Assembly (NCBI GenBank): GCA_964632315.1 | Contig: CAZWEM010000002.1 | Location: 1-64,000 of the forward strand | Reading direction: 5' to 3' | DNA: 64,000 bases | Origin: an uncultured archaeon | GTDB lineage: Archaea; Asgardarchaeota; Lokiarchaeia; Sigyniarchaeales; SOKP01 | Notes under the pieces: model-generated | What the model was told of the DNA's origin: nothing | Databases searched by the model: none | The model's input: the letters and a program-made list of their open reading frames with translations, nothing else | Shown: in pieces, positions 15,164 through 35,948 of the stretch | Numbering within the stretch: the stretch's first letter is position 1 | Layout: every line of letters starts with the position of its first letter | Translations under genes and position numbers: made by a program

Positions 15164-16339
15164 TCATTGCAAACGATTAACTTTTCCACTTTTAACGATA
15201 TATCGGTCTTTCAATATATTAGGATTTTCGCTTATTGTTTTTATTACCTGTCGTTGGAGATTTTTTGCATTTTCAAGTATTTTAAATGAAGGAGACTCCC
15301 CTATTGCCATTTGAGCTAATTCAGTGACATAAAATGACTTGATATCCTTTTCAGTAGCATATTTAGATAATGTTGTGAGGCAGCCAGTACAAATATGAGA
15401 AACAATCTCTGCACCTACGCTCTCTGCTTCTAAAATCCTCTTTTTAGCGATAGTTGCTGCCAGAGATTGATTTCCTATAGAAAGAGGGGCTCCACAACAT
15501 AGGGAGTGCTCTTTATTGTGTTTCATCTCCACAACTTCTGCTCCTATAATTTCAAGAAATTCACGTGGTCCATTGTATATTTTTCTATCTAAATTTCTCC
15601 AAGGACAAGGGTCTTGAAACGTAATTCTTTCATGAATTTTATTTTTAATGTTTAATTTACCCTCATGGTATTGTTCTATCAAATAATCAATGATAGTTTG
15701 TCCTTCTACAGAAAAATTATCTATAATTGAAGGATACACTCCTCGAATCATCGCATCACAACCAGGACAAAAAGTGATTAGCTTTTCTACTCCAAGATTC
15801 TTAAACTTTTCATTAAGCGTCAATCCATATATTCGGGATTCATCGTCACCGAAACAAGAGTGTACAAAACCGCCACAACAGTACTTCATTCCGCCTAAAA
15901 TTGGAAGATCTTTGAGTAAAGTCGTTTTGGCAAGATCCGGAAAGCAGTAGGGAATAGCACATCCTACATAGTACATCATCTCGCTTTTCGGAGGTTGTTC
16001 ATATTTGAGTAAATCTACTTTTTTTTCTTCCCTATCAATTTCTAAACCAATGTCCATTAAATTATGGGACATTTCTTCCATGATTATTGAAGTACATCTA
16101 ACACCATTCTCACTATAATTCTTTAACCGTATTTCTCTTATGAGATCATATGGATTAGATCCTGTTGGGCAGATTATATTACAATATGAACAGCTAGCAC
16201 AGTTTTTTAGAATTTTTCGTGAGTCTCGTGTCTCGATCATTTTATCAATTTCCTTCTTAGCTCTCTCATCTGATAAATGCAAAAATGGACATTCTTCTAG
16301 ACACGTACCACACCGCTGACAAGTTTGTTCGTTAAACAA
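15164..16339 (-). CDS. Fe-S oxidoreductase with ferredoxin and two CCG domains (HdrD/GlcF-like)
   Basis: CQRCGTCLEECP, CASCSYCNIICP, YCCGG, QDPC, LCCGA, CTGC. Confidence 0.85.
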   Translation of the reverse strand: MFNEQTCQRCGTCLEECPFLHLSDERAKKEIDKMIETRDSRKILKNCASCSYCNIICPTGSNPYDLIREIRLKNYSENGVRCTSIIMEEMSHNLMDIGLEIDREEKKVDLLKYEQPPKSEMMYYVGCAIPYCFPDLAKTTLLKDLPILGGMKYCCGGFVHSCFGDDESRIYGLTLNEKFKNLGVEKLITFCPGCDAMIRGVYPSIIDNFSVEGQTIIDYLIEQYHEGKLNIKNKIHERITFQDPCPWRNLDRKIYNGPREFLEIIGAEVVEMKHNKEHSLCCGAPLSIGNQSLAATIAKKRILEAESVGAEIVSHICTGCLTTLSKYATEKDIKSFYVTELAQMAIGESPSFKILENAKNLQRQVIKTISENPNILKDRYIVKSGKVNRLQ

Positions 16340-26905: not shown

Positions 26906-27403
26906 TTATTCTTTTGCTTGAATAAAAGGACTACTTGGAGCATATCTGATAAAGTCTTCATCTTCTTTCAGTACGATATGGGATGGAGCGTTAATGATCT
27001 TATCACCGATTGCGATATGTTTGTGGATTATTCTCTGTCGTGCTTCATAGACGGTTTTAGCTAAACCCTTTTCAAACACGAGAGTTTGCAGTCTTCTTTT
27101 TAATATGTCTTCAATTGAAATTAATAATACATCATCAAATGCCGCTTCCGGACCTAACACTCCAACTCTAGCTAGCTTTTTGATAAGTTCTTGCTGAACT
27201 ATCGCTGCTTCCTCATCGGGTAATTTTCGAGACTCTCGAGCCAGCTTACGCCAATTAGCAAGCATGGTTCGCATTTTCCAGAATTCACGCTTGTTTCGCA
27301 ATCCATATTTTCCGATGTATTCCAGTTCTTCCATTATCCTCTCTTTAATGTATGGATGCTTTGGTTTCTTAAACTTTTTTTTTAAACGACGTGGATCTCC
27401 CAT
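26906..27403 (-). CDS. rps4: 30S ribosomal protein S4 (uS4)
   Basis: MGDP, YGLRNKRE, RRLQT, ARQ.I.H.HI. Confidence 0.98.
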   Translation of the reverse strand: MGDPRRLKKKFKKPKHPYIKERIMEELEYIGKYGLRNKREFWKMRTMLANWRKLARESRKLPDEEAAIVQQELIKKLARVGVLGPEAAFDDVLLISIEDILKRRLQTLVFEKGLAKTVYEARQRIIHKHIAIGDKIINAPSHIVLKEDEDFIRYAPSSPFIQAKE

Positions 27404-27421
27404 CTTTCTTCACTTTTTGTA

Positions 27422-27919
27422 TTACTTTTTTTCGGCTTTCTTAATAAGTTTTTTACGCACTACTCCTATTACTAATCCATGGCGTCCTGTACTTCTAGTT
27501 CTTTGACCTCGTACTTTTAGTCCCAACCTATGACGAATACCTTTATAACTACGAATCCTTTTCATTCGATCAATGTCCTGCTTTACCTGGAGATCTAACC
27601 GATTTCCGAGGAAATGCAGATTCTCTCCGGTCCTGAAGTCTTTCTTTCGGTTGACCATCCACGCTGGGACGCCATGAGCAACAGGGTCTATTAGAATTTC
27701 TTCGATTTCATTCAAGTCTTTTTCAGCCATGGCTCCTATACGTGATCTCGGATCAACTTCGAGGATTTTTACAACTGCTTGGGCAATTCGTCTTCCAACA
27801 CCTCTAATTTGAGTTAATCCTTGTTCCACTAATGCATTCCCATCTACTTGGGATCGCAATTTCCTAAAAAAGACTTTTTCACGGAAATTTTTTGGTCGAA
27901 CAACGGGTAATGTAGTCAT
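27422..27919 (-). CDS. rps13: 30S ribosomal protein S13 (uS13)
   Basis: IRGVGRR, WMVNR.KD, SYKGIRH..GLKVRGQRT. Confidence 0.98.
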   Translation of the reverse strand: MTTLPVVRPKNFREKVFFRKLRSQVDGNALVEQGLTQIRGVGRRIAQAVVKILEVDPRSRIGAMAEKDLNEIEEILIDPVAHGVPAWMVNRKKDFRTGENLHFLGNRLDLQVKQDIDRMKRIRSYKGIRHRLGLKVRGQRTRSTGRHGLVIGVVRKKLIKKAEKK

Positions 27920-27994
27920 TTTTATTCAATATATTTCGATTTAGTTATTGTTTTTAATGTGAAATTTAATATTAATTTTGTGGTTTTTGGAAAG

Positions 27995-28030
27995 CCTTAA
28001 CTTAATTTAGGCGGTTTGTTTAAGTTAGGG
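27995..28030. promoter_or_regulatory. 11-bp inverted repeat upstream of rps13
   Basis: CCTTAACTTAA-N14-TTAAGTTAGGG next to a TTTAAA box at 28035-28040. Confidence 0.45.
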
Positions 28031-28097
28031 TAAGTTTAAAAACAGATAAGCACCCAGAAAGTTCAAAGTTGGAATGATAAAAAATTGATTGTGATAC

Positions 28098-29582
28098 TTA
28101 ATAATATGGTACTCTTTGTTTCTTGGTTAAGCGAGCATTGATATGATTTTTACATTTGGTTTTTTTTGATTTTGCAACTCTTTCCAAAAGAGGTAAGCCA
28201 GGTTTAACATCTTCTAATTTTTTTGATTCGATTAATCCTTCTTTAATAAGTTCTTCATACAATTCTTTACCTTTAGTGGTTCTAATCAAAATTGTATTCC
28301 ATCCTGCAGAAGATCCAATCGATCCTACGGAAATATCTGCACATTCAGAGGTTAAATCATAACATAATTCACAATCGGGTCTTGCTAGATGGGTGATTTC
28401 TTTCATTGGAATTGATAATTCTTCACCAGAATGTGTAAAGATAATAAATTTTCCCTTGTTGATATCAGCTTTTTTAATATCTTGAGATTTAACATTAAGT
28501 ATTTCACAGATTTTTAGAAATCCTTCTTTGAACGGGAATGATTCCATGCAAAAGATTCCTATTCGATAGCATACTTCTTTTAATCGGGGATGGTTAAAGT
28601 CGTAAATTCTTGATTTTAAAAGTGCTTGCATCTGACAAGGTACCCCAACAATCGCAATCTTTTTATCATTTATAGTTCGGTCATTTAACAAGCTTAAATT
28701 CGGATTATTTACATATTTAGTTCCCGCGCATGAAAGAGCTTCTTCAGTAGATTTAATTTTAAAGGGTATTGGTTTCCAAGCTTCTTCACTCATCCTTGCT
28801 CCAAGTGCGATGTCGATCTTATCATGATCCAACAAATAGTACAAGCAAGTAGTCGTTATCCCTCCATCCTGGCATATTTCTTTAATCGCTGATATTTTGG
28901 TGCGAGCAGAATAAGCTTCTATAAAGTGTCCGAATTTATCAACTTGATGGGGCTTATCTTCTTGAGAGATGGTCATGTGGAGCAATTCAGTTGGTAAAAT
29001 CGTCCTAGGACAGACTAAATAGCATAATCCACATTTTATGCATAAATCTTCGTTTATTGCTCCAAAGCCATTAATCATTGCAATGCATTTCATGGGACAG
29101 ACTGCAACACACATTCCGCAACCCGAACAGACTTTCGCATCAAAGATGACTTTAACAGGTTCATATACATTTTTTAAACGATCTGGATCTAAGTTTATCG
29201 CTTGCACGTTAATCTCTTTCAAATAAAGGTTATCGCTTCCATCGTTAGTAAAGATTTTATCGAAGGTTACAAGTTTTTCATGATTTAGCAGTTCTAGTAA
29301 GTAGAAAACGAGATTCAGTTGAATTAATTTTTTTTGTGCAAATTCTTTTAGAATCTTGAATTCTTGAATAGGTTTGTGTTTGATTAAATCAAATAACTCA
29401 TATTTTAGTTGCTCTAAATCAAACATATTAAAGAGAAGATCATAATATTCTTCTTCAGAATAAATTTCTCTAGCGATGATGTCTTCCTTGGCATCAATTA
29501 AAGCCCGGATTCTATATGAATCTAGGGTATCTTTAACAACTTTCAGAAATTCCCATGTTATTGGTTTCTCGTTATCCGTCAT
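28098..29582 (-). CDS. F420-dependent oxidoreductase beta subunit (FrhB/FpoF-like) with 2x[4Fe-4S] domain and N-terminal extension
   Basis: CSGCGMCVAVCP, CIKCGLCYLVCP, QDGG, GTKY, VGVPCQ, IGIFCMESF, ADISVGSIGS, GWNT. Confidence 0.92.
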   Translation of the reverse strand: MTDNEKPITWEFLKVVKDTLDSYRIRALIDAKEDIIAREIYSEEEYYDLLFNMFDLEQLKYELFDLIKHKPIQEFKILKEFAQKKLIQLNLVFYLLELLNHEKLVTFDKIFTNDGSDNLYLKEINVQAINLDPDRLKNVYEPVKVIFDAKVCSGCGMCVAVCPMKCIAMINGFGAINEDLCIKCGLCYLVCPRTILPTELLHMTISQEDKPHQVDKFGHFIEAYSARTKISAIKEICQDGGITTTCLYYLLDHDKIDIALGARMSEEAWKPIPFKIKSTEEALSCAGTKYVNNPNLSLLNDRTINDKKIAIVGVPCQMQALLKSRIYDFNHPRLKEVCYRIGIFCMESFPFKEGFLKICEILNVKSQDIKKADINKGKFIIFTHSGEELSIPMKEITHLARPDCELCYDLTSECADISVGSIGSSAGWNTILIRTTKGKELYEELIKEGLIESKKLEDVKPGLPLLERVAKSKKTKCKNHINARLTKKQRVPYY

Positions 29583-29652
29583 TTAAATTCAATATAACAT
29601 GTATTATATCAATAAATATTTTATACATCAACCGACTGCCCACGCAATGGAC

Positions 29653-29693
29653 ATGTTGCTTTTCAACCACTATGGTTTATTTGAAAAGTTCAT
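29653..29693 (-). promoter_or_regulatory. Candidate SECIS element overlapping the mvhD stop codon
   Basis: mRNA AUGA-A-CUUUUCAA-AUAAA-CCA-UAG-UGG-UUGAAAAG-CAA-CAU: perfect 8-bp helix, unpaired AAA, apical mini-stem; 3' side reads AA, not GA. Confidence 0.55.
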
Positions 29694-30126
29694 TCAAGGT
29701 CGGTTTAATTTTCTTTTTTGGGAGTGGAGGCAATGCATTAATTTTTCCTGTTATATCATTTACAGATTTCACGAAATTATCAACTTCTGCGGCAGCACAG
29801 AAATACTGTTGGATCCTCTCTTCACTGATACCTAGATGAGAAAAAATTCTTTTTAAAAATAAGACATGTTTGTTCGTATTCATGTTAGCCCGACCATAAT
29901 CGCATTCCCCCTCGTGACAAGAGATTATAGCAACACCATCAGCTCCATTCAAGAAACTCTCCATGATTAGATGAAGTCCAATTCTTCCAGTACATTTAAC
30001 GCGAATTAAATGAAATTCTGTAGAATATGATTTCCTCGTAGTACCAGTAAGGTCTGCCACCGAATATCCTCACTTCTCACAACCAAATGCAATTATCTTT
30101 CTGCTTCCATTACTAATGCTACTCAT
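29677..30126 (-). CDS. mvhD: MvhD/VhuD selenoprotein, 149 aa, Sec19
   Basis: ATG 30126; KIIAFGCEK-TGA(30070-30072)-GYSVADLTG in frame with RVKCTGR, GADGV, CHEGEC. Confidence 0.92.
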
Positions 30127-30131
30127 TTAGT

Positions 30132-32129
30132 TTATTCCTCCATTATTTCTCGGATAGATTGAATTTGGGGTTCAAATCCCCCTAGCCCCTTGATTTCTTC
30201 TTCAAATTGATCGTCTCGATAATATTTCAGATCAATTGCTCGTGCTGGACAAGATGTTACGCAAGTACCACATCCTTTACATTTTAACTCATTCACACTC
30301 GCAATATTGTTCTCTGCAACGGTGATTGCATTGAATTCACAGATTTTTTCGCATCTACGACACCCTACACAAAGGTCTTGATTCACTTCAGCAATGATTA
30401 ATTCTTGTCGAAGGATATCATTTGATAACAAGGTTGCTGCCTTGCTTGCAGCACCTAAAGCAGACGAAACGGAATAGGGAATATTTTTGGGACCTGAAGC
30501 ACATCCACATATATAAATTCCATTATCTTTTGTTTCAACAGGTTTAAGACACCCATGAACTTCAGATAAGAAATTATTCGGTCCTCTACTTAGACCCATT
30601 ATTTCAGATATTTCTTTTGTTCCTTTAGAAGGTACTATCCCTGTTGATAACACGACTAAATCAAATTCTTTCTTTGTGACTCCATCTTCCATTGCAGTAT
30701 CAAAATATAATACCATTTTTCCATTTTCATCTAGTTTTATATCACCCGGTATACCTTTTATAAAATTTATTCCTTGACCACGAATTTTTCGATAGTATTC
30801 TTCGTTTCCTTTATCCCAGGTGCGTATATCAATATAGAAAATGGTGATTTCCATATTTGGATACTCTTGCTTGAGAAGTTGAGCATTCTTTAAGGCTACA
30901 TTACAACACACAGCACTGCAATAAGAATTTCCCCTTAAGGTACGTGAACCAACACACTGGATCATTGCAACATTTTGAGGAGATTTACCAGTCGAGATTT
31001 GATACACGTGTCCACTTGTAGGACCGATTGGACTAAGCATTCGTTCTAATTCTATTTGGGTTATTACATCTGGATAGAATCCATATTTATATTCATTGGA
31101 TTCGATAATTTGATATTCATCCCAACCAGTAGCAATTATAATAGCACCGACTTTAATATCGATTAATTGTTCTTTTTGTTCAAAATCGACAGCTTCAGCA
31201 GGACAATTTCTTTCACAATTTTTACATTCTATACAAACCTCTCGGTCAATAACGGCATATTTAGGAACGGCTTGAGGGAATGGGATGTAAATGGCGCCTC
31301 GATCACCGATTCCCCTATTAAATTCATCAGGGACTTTAATTGGACACTTAATCGTGCATAAACCACATCCAGTGCATTTATTTTCATTAACATATCTTGG
31401 CTTTTTTTTAATTTTCACGTTATATTCTCCTGTAACTCCTTTAAAATCTGTTATTTCTGAATAAGTTAATAAGGTAATGTTAGGATGCTTTGCGGCATTT
31501 ACCATGATCGGAGCCAATACTCAAATACCACAATCGTCCGTTGGGAATATACGATCAAGCTGAGCCATTTTTCCTCCAATAGTGGGTTCTTTTTCAACCA
31601 AATATACTTCAATGCCTTGATTTGCGAGATCTAATGCGGCATTCATTCCGGCGATACCAGCTCCTACAACTAAGGCAGTTTTAGTAATGGGAATTTCCTT
31701 AAAAGGAATAGATTCAAGTTCTCGTGCTCGATTTACCCCGGCTAATATTAGTCGTTGAGCTTTCTTTGTTGCTTCATCTTTATCACCTTGATGGACGAAC
31801 GAGCATTGTTCTCTTAAATTCACCATTTGAAAATAGTAGGGACTCAATCCTGCTTCAGTTAAAACTGCACGATAAGTTGGTTCGTGAATTTTTGGAGTAC
31901 AAGCAGCCACTACTATTCTATTTAAATCCTGTTCAAGTATGTCATTCTTTATTTGTTGTTGCCCAGGATCACTACAAGTAAATTTATTCATCCTAGCAAT
32001 AACTACATTTGGTAAAGTTTCAGCGAAATCCCTTAAAGCAGCACAATCAACATATAATCCGATATTAACGCCTCACTCACACACATAAACTCCAATTCTA
32101 ATTTGCTCAATGGTCTGTTTATCAGACAA
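30132..32129 (-). CDS. hdrA: Heterodisulfide reductase subunit A selenoprotein, 665 aa, Sec19 and Sec203
   Basis: AGGTGA RBS and TTG 32129; IGVYVCE-TGA(32073-32075)-GVNI; FPTDDCGI-TGA(31521-31523)-VLAP; all segments in one frame; GAGIAG, QCVGSR, YCSAVCC. Confidence 0.93.
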
Positions 32130-32393
32130 TTAATTCACCTTTTTGTAGATTCACCAATATACTAATAATTAATGAAATTAGATGCTAATTCTTAATATCT
32201 TAGGTATGTGAATAGATGAAACAATTTATTTTTTCTGTTTAAATCAGATCAATGATCAATTTCGTAACTCAAATGATCCATATGATTTTACCTATATCTA
32301 AAATCTAATTAAATTCATCACATTTAATCAAACGAAAAAATAAATGAAGTTGAATCTTTAATTACTTGAATAAATGATCCATACGTATAGCAT

Positions 32394-32579
32394 ATGTCAG
32401 TAAATAACGAGAAGATTAAAGAAGAATTTGCAAAAGAATTCATGAATGAAGAAGGATTAAAGGGTAAGGCAAAAAGGTTAAAGATCATGCGCATAATTGA
32501 CATGGTTGGATACGATAAAAGAAAGATACGTAATGCGTTACTAAGATCGGATATAGCTGAAAAAATCTCTCATGATTAA
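32394..32579 (+). CDS. Small hypothetical protein
   Basis: 61-aa ORF with typical composition upstream of serS. Confidence 0.6.
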   Translation: MSVNNEKIKEEFAKEFMNEEGLKGKAKRLKIMRIIDMVGYDKRKIRNALLRSDIAEKISHD

Positions 32580-32672
32580 TGGTAAACTTAATCCCGCACC
32601 ATCAATTATTTATCATAATTATTTTAAAATATGCAAAATTAATGCCATCAATAATTTGAGAATGAAGTAAAA

Positions 32673-33968
32673 TTGCTTGATATTGAACTGTTCCGGAATA
32701 AATTGGATAAAATTATTGAATCTGAAAAGAAGAGATTTAAAGATCCCTCCCATGCTAAAAAAGTGGCTGATTTAGATGTTAAATGGAGAGAAAACCTAAA
32801 GAAAGTGGAAGATTTAAACCGAAAAAGGAAAAAACTCTCCATAAAAATCGGTGAACTTGCTAAAACGGGGAAATCAGCCAATATTAATCCATTAAAGGAA
32901 GAAGCTAAGAAAATTAAAGAAAAGATTGACTTATTAAAAACTGAACGAGATAATTATCTCCTCGAGAGGGACAAATATAGATACTTAGTGGGAAATATTT
33001 TGCATGAATCGGTTCCTAAGGCAGAAACAGAAGAAGGGAATGAAATAGTAAGAACTGTAGGGAAGTTACCTGATTTTGACTTTAAACCCGCCTCCCATGT
33101 AGAACTAATAGAGTTAATTGACGGCGCAGATACTAGTAAGGCTTCGCAAATCTCCGGTTCACGGTTCTTTTTCCTGAAAGGAGATATCGTCTTGTTAAAT
33201 TTAGCATTACTCAGGTTTGCACTGGATAAGTTAATTGATTTGGGATACTTGCCCATATGGACTCCCTTTTTCTTGAAGTATGATATAATAGAAGCGGCTG
33301 CAGAATTAGCTGATTTCGAAGAACAGCTATATAAAATTCAGGATGAAGACTTATATATGATTGCTACTTCTGAGCAAAGTATAGCAGCTTATCATTATGA
33401 TGAAATAATTGATCCTAGTCGATTACCATTGAAATATGCAGGAATATCATCATGTTTTAGAAGAGAAGTTGGTTCCCATGGAAAGGATACTTTAGGAATT
33501 TTTAGAGTTCATCAATTTGAAAAGGTAGAGCAATTTATCTTTTGCAAACCAGATGAATCTTGGAATCTCCATGATGAACTACTTTCTAATGCAGAATCAA
33601 TATTTCAAGAGTTAGAAATTCCTTATCGAATAGTCAACATCGCTTCGGGAGAACTAAATGATAATGCTGCAAAGAAATACGATTTAGAAGGATGGTTTCC
33701 CGCATCTGAAAACTACCGCGAATTAGTATCTTGTAGCAATTGCACGGATTATCAAGCTAGAAAGTTAAAGATTAGAATGGGAACCGTTGGGTCACAAGAA
33801 CAAAAAGAAATGGTCCATACACTGAATTCTACTGCGATTGCAGTTGAAAGAACAATATGTTGCATTCTTGAGAATAATCAAAATAAGGACCATTCTATCA
33901 ATATCCCTAAAGTACTTCAAAAATACATGAATGGAAAAAAAATTATTAACCCTACAATATTAGAGTAA
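32673..33968 (+). CDS. serS: Serine--tRNA ligase (standard type)
   Basis: MLDI..FR, ATSEQ, CFRRE.GSHG.DT.GIFRVHQFEKVEQF, ELVSCSNCTDYQAR, HTLN. Confidence 0.98.
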   Translation: MLDIELFRNKLDKIIESEKKRFKDPSHAKKVADLDVKWRENLKKVEDLNRKRKKLSIKIGELAKTGKSANINPLKEEAKKIKEKIDLLKTERDNYLLERDKYRYLVGNILHESVPKAETEEGNEIVRTVGKLPDFDFKPASHVELIELIDGADTSKASQISGSRFFFLKGDIVLLNLALLRFALDKLIDLGYLPIWTPFFLKYDIIEAAAELADFEEQLYKIQDEDLYMIATSEQSIAAYHYDEIIDPSRLPLKYAGISSCFRREVGSHGKDTLGIFRVHQFEKVEQFIFCKPDESWNLHDELLSNAESIFQELEIPYRIVNIASGELNDNAAKKYDLEGWFPASENYRELVSCSNCTDYQARKLKIRMGTVGSQEQKEMVHTLNSTAIAVERTICCILENNQNKDHSINIPKVLQKYMNGKKIINPTILE

Positions 33969-33977
33969 TTATATAAA

Positions 33978-35210
33978 ATGACAGAAGTATCAATAGAAGA
34001 ATTTGAAGATTTTTATAAAGAAAGGCTTGATGATCTATTCTTCAAGATTAAACGAGCTGTTGGAAAACTCATTTCTGACGTAAAAGGAGGATTAGTTGAG
34101 ATTAAAAAATGTACTGATCACTTTATAGAAGCAGGTGAGGATAAAGTTGATAATAAAGCTCAAAGATCGTTACATTTTTTTTCCGATAAAATTAAAAAAG
34201 AAATCGATGAAATCGAATTACCTGAAGATGAAATTACATATGATAACACTCTTGAGTTATTAAACTCAATCAAAAGACTATTTAACAACATTAATGAAGT
34301 CGCCCGAAAATCATTACCAAAGTTTAAGTCTGAGGTCCAAACAGAGATTAAGGAACTAAATTATTTTACCAGGAAATTGAGCAAGAAACAAGCAACTTTG
34401 GAGCAATTCATGAGAAAAAAATACACTGAACTTAAAGAGGCAGAATACTTATTAAATAAATTACCTAAAATGTTTGCATTAAGAGATAATATAGAAAATT
34501 CTAAGCGAGATTTAGATCAATTCGAACAAGAATTAGCAGAACGTAAGAAAAATGAAGAAGCACTGAATGCAAGGCTTGTAACTTTGGAAAAAAACGATCT
34601 CTTTAGAAAACTAGAAGAAGAAAGAGATAGATTGTTCAAATTGAAAATAAATATAAATGATCAACTGGGTTTTAAAAAAGCTTTAAAGAAAATGAAATTT
34701 AATTTGGAAAAGGGAGAAATTCATGTTTCAAATGTGGATCTGAATTATATCAGAGATTTTTTAAAGGACTCTATCAGGACGTTAGCACAAGAAAGCAGTG
34801 ACTTAATTAAGTTCTCGAGTCTCTTGGTTCAATTACGTCGTATTTTAGAAGAGAACAAATTAAATTTAAAAGCAGATACAAAAGAGAAAACCATTGAGCA
34901 GATTAATATGATTTTTGATACTAAACAGATCTATGACGACATTGAGACTGTAAGGAAAATTAACGAGAACATTATTCAAATTGAAAAAGAAATTGAAGAG
35001 GCAGGATTAGCGACTAAATTAGAAAATATAAAAAATGAGATTTCTGCAAATGCCGTCAAATTAGAGCATCTAGAAAGTGATTTAGAACGGAAGAATAAAG
35101 ACTACATGAGACATTTAAATTCTTTAAAAGAAGAAAGAGAAGAGTTCCAGAGTTTAATTTCAGATGTTTTAAATGAGGATGTCAAGCTTACAATCTCATT
35201 TTCATTCTAA
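33978..35210 (+). CDS. Long coiled-coil hypothetical protein
   Basis: E/K/L-rich heptads throughout; 9 bp after serS. Confidence 0.75.
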   Translation: MTEVSIEEFEDFYKERLDDLFFKIKRAVGKLISDVKGGLVEIKKCTDHFIEAGEDKVDNKAQRSLHFFSDKIKKEIDEIELPEDEITYDNTLELLNSIKRLFNNINEVARKSLPKFKSEVQTEIKELNYFTRKLSKKQATLEQFMRKKYTELKEAEYLLNKLPKMFALRDNIENSKRDLDQFEQELAERKKNEEALNARLVTLEKNDLFRKLEEERDRLFKLKININDQLGFKKALKKMKFNLEKGEIHVSNVDLNYIRDFLKDSIRTLAQESSDLIKFSSLLVQLRRILEENKLNLKADTKEKTIEQINMIFDTKQIYDDIETVRKINENIIQIEKEIEEAGLATKLENIKNEISANAVKLEHLESDLERKNKDYMRHLNSLKEEREEFQSLISDVLNEDVKLTISFSF

Positions 35211-35948
35211 AGGGGAATCTATTTCTTTTATTTCTAAATCACGATTATCATTTATATCTTTTTTGAGCAAGGCTAATTTTAAATTATTCTTCAAAAATTT
35301 GAAGGTATGTGTTTCATTCATATTTAACGCTTTAAGGTATTCATATGCTAAAACTAAATCCTGCTTGATATCAATATCAAATCCCGAGCGAAAGGAATCA
35401 TATATTACAAATTTTAATTTTTTCAATTTTGCTTCGTTCACTAAAGCAAATAATGAAGGGATTGTTGGATGGGAAAAAAAAGTAGAAATAATATCAGGCG
35501 GAGATCGCCCTAGTATAGAGACACCACCTGAATGAATTGCGGGACAGATTACTATTTGATGATTTTTAAGAAGGGAAGATAGTTCAATAAAATTGACACG
35601 ATTGATGAGGATAACATCACAAAAAGCAAGGGTTGTTTTTGTAGCGTCATGTTTTTTCATTGCGATATCATTAAAAACCTCAATTACCTCATCGAAGGTC
35701 TTGTTTGAGTTTGCTTTATCTTCTTTAATGGGAATTAATCCGAATTCTTCCGCTAATTCCAGAATTTCGGGACTGGTGCAATAAACTAACTTATTTTCAA
35801 ACGCCTTTACCGTCGATACCTTTAAAGCAAAATCTTTAAATAAAGAAATTGTGAAATTTTTTAATTGTTCTTCTGTAAACACTGATTTTAATCGAGATTT
35901 TGCTCTTGGAAGAGGTGATACTGGAATTAATAGGCTATTCATAATCAA
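35202..35948 (-). CDS. cofC: 2-phospho-L-lactate/PEP guanylyltransferase (F420 biosynthesis)
   Basis: LIPV..L.RAKSRL, D..LI, P...GG, FDIDIKQDL. Confidence 0.8.
   Translation of the reverse strand: MIMNSLLIPVSPLPRAKSRLKSVFTEEQLKNFTISLFKDFALKVSTVKAFENKLVYCTSPEILELAEEFGLIPIKEDKANSNKTFDEVIEVFNDIAMKKHDATKTTLAFCDVILINRVNFIELSSLLKNHQIVICPAIHSGGVSILGRSPPDIISTFFSHPTIPSLFALVNEAKLKKLKFVIYDSFRSGFDIDIKQDLVLAYEYLKALNMNETHTFKFLKNNLKLALLKKDINDNRDLEIKEIDSPLE

Follow-up and report, generated by a model that had tools for sequence, protein, structure and literature searches.

A predicted HdrA-MvhD selenoprotein pair with one shared SECIS element and an adjacent FrhB-like gene in a lokiarchaeal genome

The 64,000-nucleotide (nt) stretch analyzed here (positions 1 to 64,000 of contig CAZWEM010000002.1, assembly GCA_964632315.1, from an uncultured archaeon of the Lokiarchaeia; hereafter the window) carries a cluster of three co-oriented genes on the minus strand, from 32129 to 28098, comprising hdrA, mvhD and an FrhB-like gene. 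The first two contain three in-frame TGA codons, all of which are very probably read as selenocysteine (Sec), as judged by alignment, conservation and the gene content of the genome. A single selenocysteine insertion sequence (SECIS) lies over the end of mvhD. For the cluster as a whole, we lean toward a reading in which the HdrA-MvhD selenoproteins are joined by an F420-coupled FrhB-like arm on an HdrA of the bifurcation type, with a further partner encoded elsewhere.

Once TGA is taken as Sec, the hdrA frame (30132..32129, minus strand) runs uninterrupted over 665 amino acids, from a TTG start at 32129 to a TAA stop at 30134–30132, with Sec codons at positions 19 and 203. A Shine-Dalgarno-like AGGTGA, read directly from the sequence, lies 5 nt 5′ of the TTG (32135..32140, minus strand). 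This start position is common to 62 orthologs (ATG in 37, TTG in 24, GTG in one), and 58 of the 62 carry a Shine-Dalgarno-like motif no more than 15 nt from it. The mvhD gene (FlpD/VhuD family; 29677..30126, minus strand) starts with an ATG at 30126, 5 nt past the hdrA stop and downstream of a GGAGG, and encodes 149 amino acids with a Sec codon at position 19 and a TAA stop at 29679–29677. These boundaries agree with an earlier note on this DNA, made from the sequence alone, which had proposed that reading through three TGAs restores a 665-residue HdrA and a 149-residue MvhD. The FrhB-like gene (28098..29582, minus strand; 494 amino acids, ATG start, TAA stop) is an open frame without TGA; whereas hdrA and mvhD both have a Shine-Dalgarno sequence, none precedes its ATG.

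Aligned to the Cys/Sec columns of solved HdrA and MvhD chains, each TGA falls at a conserved cysteine position, as the earlier note had supposed. The UGA at hdrA codon 19 (32073..32075, minus strand) represents the second Cys of the N-terminal CxC motif (VYVCE-U-GVNI) and aligns with the second Cys in VCYCG of 9sfi_A. Codon 203 (31521..31523, minus strand; DDCGI-U-VLAP) is the canonical HdrA Sec site, equivalent to Cys197/Sec197, and aligns with the X (Sec) of 9sfi_A within PTDDCAMXILAP. In mvhD, codon 19 (30070..30072, minus strand; GCEK-U-GYS) corresponds to the second Cys of a CxxC motif and aligns with the second Cys of CNWC in both 9sw2_D and 5odc_D.

To these structures we add two orthologous sets, 19 loci from relatives and 80 loci from named Promethearchaeota (Loki) metagenome-assembled genomes (MAGs). 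Both sets give the same result: among the 80 loci, the two hdrA TGAs are found in all 62 orthologs aligned from residue 1 and the mvhD TGA in 73 of 73, with protein identity of 70–80% persisting on both sides of the codons. The second VhuD Sec site, position 70 of MvhD, is more variable: it is TGA in 62 orthologs and Cys in 11, and the window has Cys70. Relatives also have an additional HdrA Sec site at position 305, within a CxxCxxU motif of the inserted ferredoxin domain. Within the genome itself, all four Sec-type HdrA genes carry the N-terminal Sec site, and one HdrA paralog has an extra Sec at the AACTP Cys. Contigs from four independent salt-marsh metagenome studies contain the same three TGA codons, with differences at nearby sites and no other letter, such as would make TGC or TGT, at the codons themselves, although only two of the four runs cover the mvhD codon well.

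The genome (4.45 Mb in 119 contigs, with an estimated contamination of 8.6%) encodes the Sec machinery whose presence the earlier note had made a check on its proposal. The tRNA-Sec scores 61.3 bits, over the Rfam cut-off, and is also called by ARAGORN with a TCA anticodon. It adjoins SepSecS (470 bits), and a SelB-like gene (237 bits) lies on the same contig, 3 kb from the SepSecS/tRNA-Sec pair. A PSTK-like gene scores 158 bits; the PSTK and SelB scores are below curated cut-offs, yet these are the expected best matches. SelD is encoded twice, and both copies contain a single in-frame TGA. The UGAs would accordingly be decoded by a pathway of the archaeal/eukaryal type, involving tRNA-Sec, PSTK, SepSecS, SelD and SelB, under the direction of a single kink-turn SECIS that resembles those of eukaryotes and overlies the mvhD terminus.

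That the TGAs are instead true stops, in decayed genes or through assembly error, or that the code has changed genome-wide, is favored by nothing but the split open reading frame (ORF) track and has a negligible probability, given the complete conservation among orthologs, the conserved protein downstream of every TGA, the agreement of the four metagenome studies, the presence of both SECIS and Sec machinery and, with respect to a code change, the fact that TGA is the ordinary stop of 8 of the 47 long ORFs in the window. On the strength of the ortholog conservation, the four studies and the TGA-terminated ORFs, we consider decay, sequencing or assembly error and a code change to be excluded for practical purposes.

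As previously observed (Mariotti et al., 2016; PMC4989117), Loki HdrA can have up to four Sec residues at five positions, so that the N-terminal CxU site and the presence of several Sec in one HdrA, which the earlier note found less familiar, are already published. In the same study, Loki Sec-HdrA always occurs in tandem with Sec-VhuD, the two sharing one lokiSECIS that follows the VhuD gene, and hdrA never ends in UGA; in the window its stop is TAA. A later survey of the Asgard selenoproteome (2024; PMC11227280) extended these observations to hundreds of MAGs and described an AUGA_AA variant for Lokiarchaeia hdrA/frhD. The window has the features of these Asgard pairs: a multi-Sec HdrA with the canonical site near residue 200, a Sec-VhuD immediately downstream on the same strand after a 5-nt spacer, an hdrA stop other than UGA, a single SECIS of the AUGA, A-rich loop and GA-or-AA type after the second gene, and Sec genes in the genome. 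It differs from them in that MvhD has one Sec, the second site being Cys, and in that the mvhD frame enters the SECIS and stops in its 14-nt apical loop.

The proteins also resemble the Methanococcales HdrA(Sec197)-VhuD(2 Sec) pair of the Hdr-Vhu-Fwd complex (PMC13518236; 9sfi), with Sec at DDCxxU of HdrA and at CxxU of VhuD. In contrast, the Methanococcales HdrA has one Sec, each gene has its own euryarchaeal SECIS of the GAA_A type, and the partner is a hydrogenase.

hdrA has no 3′ untranslated region of its own, and a pattern scan identified a single Loki-type SECIS over the end of mvhD. Its core (29656..29693, minus strand) comprises AUGA, a nine-pair stem in which the first pair is A.C, a 14-nt apical loop, AUAAACCAUAGUGG, that holds the mvhD stop, and a closing AA. 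Of 75 related loci, 71 have this element at the equivalent position, with an apical loop of 11 nt, AAAAAUNNUAG; 62 of them close with AA and 9 with GA. A covariance model trained on 49 elements from orthologous loci, that of the window excluded, matches 29650–29699 on the minus strand (32 bits, E 5.7e-5), its only significant match in the window. Over the whole genome it has six matches, among them those behind two other Sec mvhD genes. A permissive Rfam search of 27300–32700 returned no SECIS family and only two chance matches.

The core is part of a larger predicted fold (29630..29705, minus strand), a three-helix junction with an RNAfold minimum free energy of −22.8 kcal/mol and a z score of −2.34. 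Helix I is nearly invariant across 54 orthologs, and CCGAC/GUCGG in the window against CCGAA/UUCGG in relatives constitutes a compensatory change. Helix II is the kink-turn arm, and compensatory changes are found at all nine of its stem pairs among related loci. The third element, an extra 5-bp hairpin (ACCCN-NNGCN-NGGGU), is set into the internal loop, in its 3′ half, and shows compensatory changes at three of five pairs. Over the 54 orthologs, 93.6% of cells in the extended fold pair, a figure inflated for helix II, whose elements were chosen by a pattern with a minimum of 8 pairs out of 9; this selection did not extend to helix I or hairpin 3. The texts of PMC4989117 and PMC11227280 make no mention of the three-helix junction.

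The overlap of the mvhD frame with this element is a peculiarity of the species. The usual mvhD stop, a TAG just before A-AUGA, is TTG here (29696–29694), and because of this substitution the frame runs six codons further, through the 5′ arm of the SECIS, to stop at the UAA in the apical loop. The loop itself has a 3-nt insert (UGG) that is not in the 71 related elements and that permits a small extra stem. Neither the TTG nor the insert shows another letter or an indel in the four metagenome runs, and the contigs listed for all four cover 29650–29699. In this species, the ribosome would therefore translate into the SECIS itself. On this sequence arrangement, one eukaryote-like SECIS would serve UGAs about 0.4, 1.8 and 2.4 kb away, across two cistrons, a natural case of action over 0.4–2.4 kb.

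Three other matches to the covariance model lie behind ORFs outside any Pfam family. The strongest genome-wide (53 bits; C3:40525-40571, minus strand) directly follows a 62-residue ORF (L169:1550-1738, minus strand) with one predicted membrane helix, a C-terminal GGGGUGC motif and no Pfam family, a candidate small membrane selenoprotein. Matches of 29 and 30 bits at C14:57645-57691 and C8:107363-107408 (both minus strand) are preceded by ORFs L174:1556-2029 (C14) and L173:1556-1876 (C8), again on the minus strand, both of which contain in-frame TGA; in one, two TGA codons stand side by side (VHADUUADN), and the other contains SSESULLSFC.

We next consider the proteins. HdrA matches 9sfi_A and 5odc_A over its full length (E about 1e-213), the alignments spanning residues 11–648 and 8–649, respectively, and 9sfi is its best match in the PDB (715 bits). 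All four domains are retained, with the flavin adenine dinucleotide (FAD) motif, the Cys cluster of the thioredoxin-reductase domain, and the inserted and C-terminal 2x[4Fe-4S] domains. HdrA also carries the motif C-x13-C-x3-CC, which we take to hold the thioredoxin-reductase-domain cluster that hands electrons to HdrC. MvhD scores 125 bits against PF02662 (cut-off 22.3), has the conserved Cys set and aligns with 5odc_D and 9sw2_D. HdrA2 is the best NCBIfam model of both proteins, which match it collinearly over positions 1–640 and 646–773 of 777. Sec203 corresponds to Cys197, and Sec19 sits in the N-terminal domain that carries the shuttle cluster. In a crystal structure, Cys197 is a ligand of the cluster in the partner protomer's N-terminal domain (PMC9012536), and a cryo-electron microscopy map from Methanococcus maripaludis has a Cys-Sec bridge between FAD and the shuttle cluster at residue 197 (PMC13518236).

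The third gene encodes an FrhB-type subunit with a ferredoxin domain, as the earlier note had described it; Pfam and NCBIfam identify FrhB_FdhB_N (63 bits), FrhB_FdhB_C (136 bits) and two 4Fe-4S motifs. Residues 1–135 are helical with a winged helix, 146–200 form a 2x[4Fe-4S] segment, and 215–490 form the FrhB/FdhB FAD/F420 core. The protein scores 271.2 bits against NF006807 (cut-off 269) and falls short of the equivalog cut-offs of TIGR03289 (236 versus 331.5 bits) and FpoF (174 versus 475 bits), and no hydrogenase or Fpo genes lie adjacent to its gene. The core matches the beta subunit of F420-reducing hydrogenase with a phmmer E of 2e-58. C316, C345, C404 and C407 are invariant in the orthologs and, by alignment to FrhB, are the likely ligands of its [4Fe-4S] cluster.

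The N-terminal domain of about 135 residues has no Pfam match. AlphaFold2 models it as helices followed by a winged helix, with a predicted local distance difference test score of 85–90 in the domain and 84 overall. An Atlas search with this domain gave sub-threshold winged-helix leads only. A word-seeded search with the N-terminal 140 residues returned only Loki proteins of the same architecture, a result of limited sensitivity that does not prove the domain to be restricted to them. In the search for related loci, a single FrhB-like sequence as query found none and an alignment query succeeded.

The best matches of the ferredoxin and FrhB core together are the F420-reducing Fmd and CODH subunits of Candidatus Ethanoperedens (8rja_E and 8riu_B; Foldseek E 1e-26, template modeling score on the target about 0.8) and FrhB of Frh (3zfs_C, 6qgr_B). 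In these enzymes, FrhB modules are plug-in F420 ports for Fe-S enzymes; in contrast to the window protein, all lack the 135-residue winged-helix domain, and HdrA-MvhD is not the partner of any of them.

There is precedent for an HdrA fed by F420H2. In the Elp-Hdr complex of Methanothermobacter marburgensis (PMC12350162; 8rvu/8rvv), the FdhB-like ElpB oxidizes F420H2 and the MvhD-like ElpC feeds HdrA, and FdhAB-MvhD-HdrABC of Methanospirillum hungatei (7bkb) is a further example. Both complexes reduce CoM-S-S-CoB and rely on HdrBC, on an FdhA/ElpA scaffold and on a subunit of the FdhB type whose ferredoxin domain is C-terminal. In contrast, the FrhB/FpoF-like subunit of the window has its ferredoxin domain on the N-terminal side, together with a winged-helix domain, and its cluster has no ElpA and no Mcr or CoM-CoB context, although no search aimed at Mcr was made. 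Also comparable are an hdrA-mvhD-frhB cluster of Korarchaeia, proposed to be a ferredoxin:F420 oxidoreductase (PMC10667645), the HdrA-FrhB/FdhB clusters discussed for anaerobic methanotrophic (ANME) archaea (PMC9012536) and HdrA2B2C2 of Methanosarcina acetivorans. These share with the window the triplet or a fused HdrA-MvhD and a proposed F420 link, but they are Cys proteins without SECIS from other phyla and, HdrA2B2C2 excepted, are genomic proposals only. Taken as analogs, Elp-Hdr, Fdh-Hdr and the clusters of Korarchaeia and ANME make it plausible that F420H2 feeds an HdrA module here, with electrons entering from F420 through the FrhB-like protein.

The linkage of the three genes is well conserved; synteny in Asgard orthologs was among the checks that the earlier note had proposed. 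hdrA-mvhD-frhB is contiguous in 65 of the 67 loci with enough flank upstream, and the arrangement extends to two further families of the order. Three loci, some with less flanking sequence, look like exceptions, but they reflect a scaffold gap (L091) or inserted genes (L129 and L134) and are not counter-examples to linkage. In L129 and L134, from two related MAGs, two to three extra genes lie between mvhD and frhB, for example of 190 and 376 amino acids, and may be a mobile element. At unrelated loci in the same genome, an FrhB/FdhB-family gene follows three of the four Sec-type hdrA-mvhD pairs; behind the C9 pair, it is of an FdhB-like form. We found no description of hdrA-mvhD-frhB linkage for Loki in the literature, and the texts of PMC4989117 and PMC11227280 do not mention an FrhB-like gene after the SECIS. 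The Sec pair and its SECIS are known for Loki; what varies here is the conserved FrhB-like partner, which carries an N-terminal domain of its own, and the overlap of SECIS and stop in this species.

A paralogous cluster at C52:8000-21500 comprises hdrA (3 Sec), mvhD (2 Sec), a SECIS and two FrhB genes, and continues with an HdrC/B-like fusion, a 1047-residue fused double HdrA, a Cys-type mvhD and a URO-D-like gene.

Domain annotation of the window places no hdrB, hdrC or hydrogenase gene beside the three genes, as the earlier note had stated with respect to hdrB, hdrC and a hydrogenase large subunit. Its further claim of a complex without HdrBC is unsupported, since hdrA and hdrCB are separate transcription units in Methanothermobacter and Methanococcus, so that adjacency is not expected, and since the genome has about 25 CCG-domain (HdrB/D-like) genes; the HdrC/B-like fusion of the C52 cluster is a further case. 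Those CCG-domain genes that lie beside hdrA adjoin Cys-type copies. Within the window, an HdrD/GlcF-like fusion of 391 amino acids (15164-16339, minus strand), with a 4Fe-4S dicluster and a CCG domain, lies 12 kb from the cluster. Its neighbors are a Zn-dependent alcohol dehydrogenase and a SnoaL-like protein, and nothing ties the fusion to the window HdrA.

The organism is predicted to make and use F420, on the basis of genes for CofD, CofH (with a probable CofG beside it), a CofC-like protein and an F420-dependent Mtd; Mer was not found with the TIGR03555 model. The CofC-like gene, of the 2-phospho-L-lactate guanylyltransferase family, lies in the window itself (35202-35948, minus strand), 3 kb from hdrA.

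In the mechanism that we propose, HdrA would be a full-length protein of the flavin-based bifurcation type and MvhD its [2Fe-2S] connector. The FrhB-like protein would act as an electron-input or -output module, exchanging hydride between F420H2 and FAD, with electrons passing from its [4Fe-4S] clusters through MvhD to the HdrA flavin. HdrA could couple to ferredoxin via the shuttle cluster and the inserted ferredoxin domain, and its thioredoxin-reductase-domain cluster could deliver electrons to an HdrC/B-like partner encoded elsewhere, with a disulfide as acceptor, in a host that is a non-methanogen.

Several observations weigh against this reading. No ElpA/FdhA-like scaffold gene is found in the cluster, and no partner was identified for the high-potential branch of HdrA. 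The FrhB-like protein is closer to FrhB/FpoF than to ElpB and FdhB, the subunits known to dock on MvhD-HdrA, which it matches weakly (E 3e-18 and 1e-7). HdrA scores below the NCBIfam equivalog cut-offs for methanogen HdrA (604 versus 1400 bits) and HdrA2 (852 versus 1100 bits), as a relative and not an equivalog. The window SECIS deviates from its 71 relatives in having a 14-nt loop, compared with 10–11 nt (13 in one), ends in AA instead of GA, and is entered by translated codons as far as the loop. It is also uncertain whether frhB belongs to the same message: it may be a separate transcript, since the SECIS lies between it and mvhD, it has no Shine-Dalgarno sequence, and an A/T-rich, TATA-like spacer precedes it, 73 nt from the SECIS core or 47 nt from the extended fold. 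The public runs listed as containing this DNA include none of RNA.

The rival that survives best, although we consider it unlikely, is a non-bifurcating ferredoxin:F420 oxidoreductase, in which HdrA would oxidize ferredoxin, MvhD would relay the electrons and the FrhB-like protein would reduce F420, without HdrBC; the reduced F420 would then serve the tetrahydromethanopterin Wood-Ljungdahl pathway. The same triplet has been so proposed in Korarchaeia, hdrBC is adjacent in 0 of about 100 loci, and the genome pairs an F420-dependent Mtd with the absence of a Frh-type hydrogenase beside any FrhB homolog. However, HdrA retains all of the domains of bifurcating HdrA together with C-x13-C-x3-CC, presumably the cluster that feeds HdrC. 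The C52 cluster includes an HdrC/B-like gene, and the distance between hdrA and hdrBC is equally a feature of methanogens.

We regard as improbable a second rival, in which frhB is a mere conserved neighbor with its own promoter and Sec-HdrA-MvhD is served by an Mvh-type [NiFe] hydrogenase or another donor encoded elsewhere. It would account for the position of the SECIS, which marks the end of the hdrA-mvhD message, and for the missing Shine-Dalgarno sequence and the A/T-rich spacer, which measures 50–124 nt across related loci. Moreover, the whole block of seryl-tRNA synthetase, the three genes and rps13 is frozen in synteny, so that linkage alone is weak evidence, and two [NiFe] hydrogenase genes are present elsewhere in the genome. 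Against this, an FrhB/FdhB-family gene recurs after three of four Sec-type pairs at unrelated loci and also follows the orthologous pairs in other families of the order, and the C7 hydrogenase already has a Cys-type hdrA-mvhD of its own.

Returning to the F420-coupled bifurcating module, a more specific and distinctly speculative version would have the winged-helix domain of the Loki FrhB-like protein, if restricted to this lineage, dock on Sec-MvhD/HdrA without an FdhA/ElpA scaffold. The product might be a hydrogenase-independent bifurcating or confurcating enzyme, F420H2-driven or F420-reducing, that serves a non-methanogen and is paired with a high-potential partner, a disulfide or another. 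Sec19 and, from the partner protomer, Sec203 might then both act at the shuttle [4Fe-4S] cluster beside the bifurcating flavin.

The Sec reading matters mainly for annotation, in that gene callers split or truncate hdrA and mvhD in every Loki MAG. The open biology concerns the role of many Asgard HdrA modules in the absence of methanogenesis, and here the HdrA-MvhD-FrhB triplet is a compact, testable candidate for linking F420, ferredoxin and a third couple in the closest prokaryotic relatives of eukaryotes.

By Pfam and NCBIfam annotation, the cluster is flanked downstream by rps13-rps4-rps11 and on the other side by the divergent seryl-tRNA synthetase gene (32673-33968, plus strand), a neighbor in 48 of 80 related loci. 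Seryl-tRNA synthetase also charges tRNA-Sec with serine, but its adjacency to the selenoprotein genes probably reflects frozen synteny rather than function.

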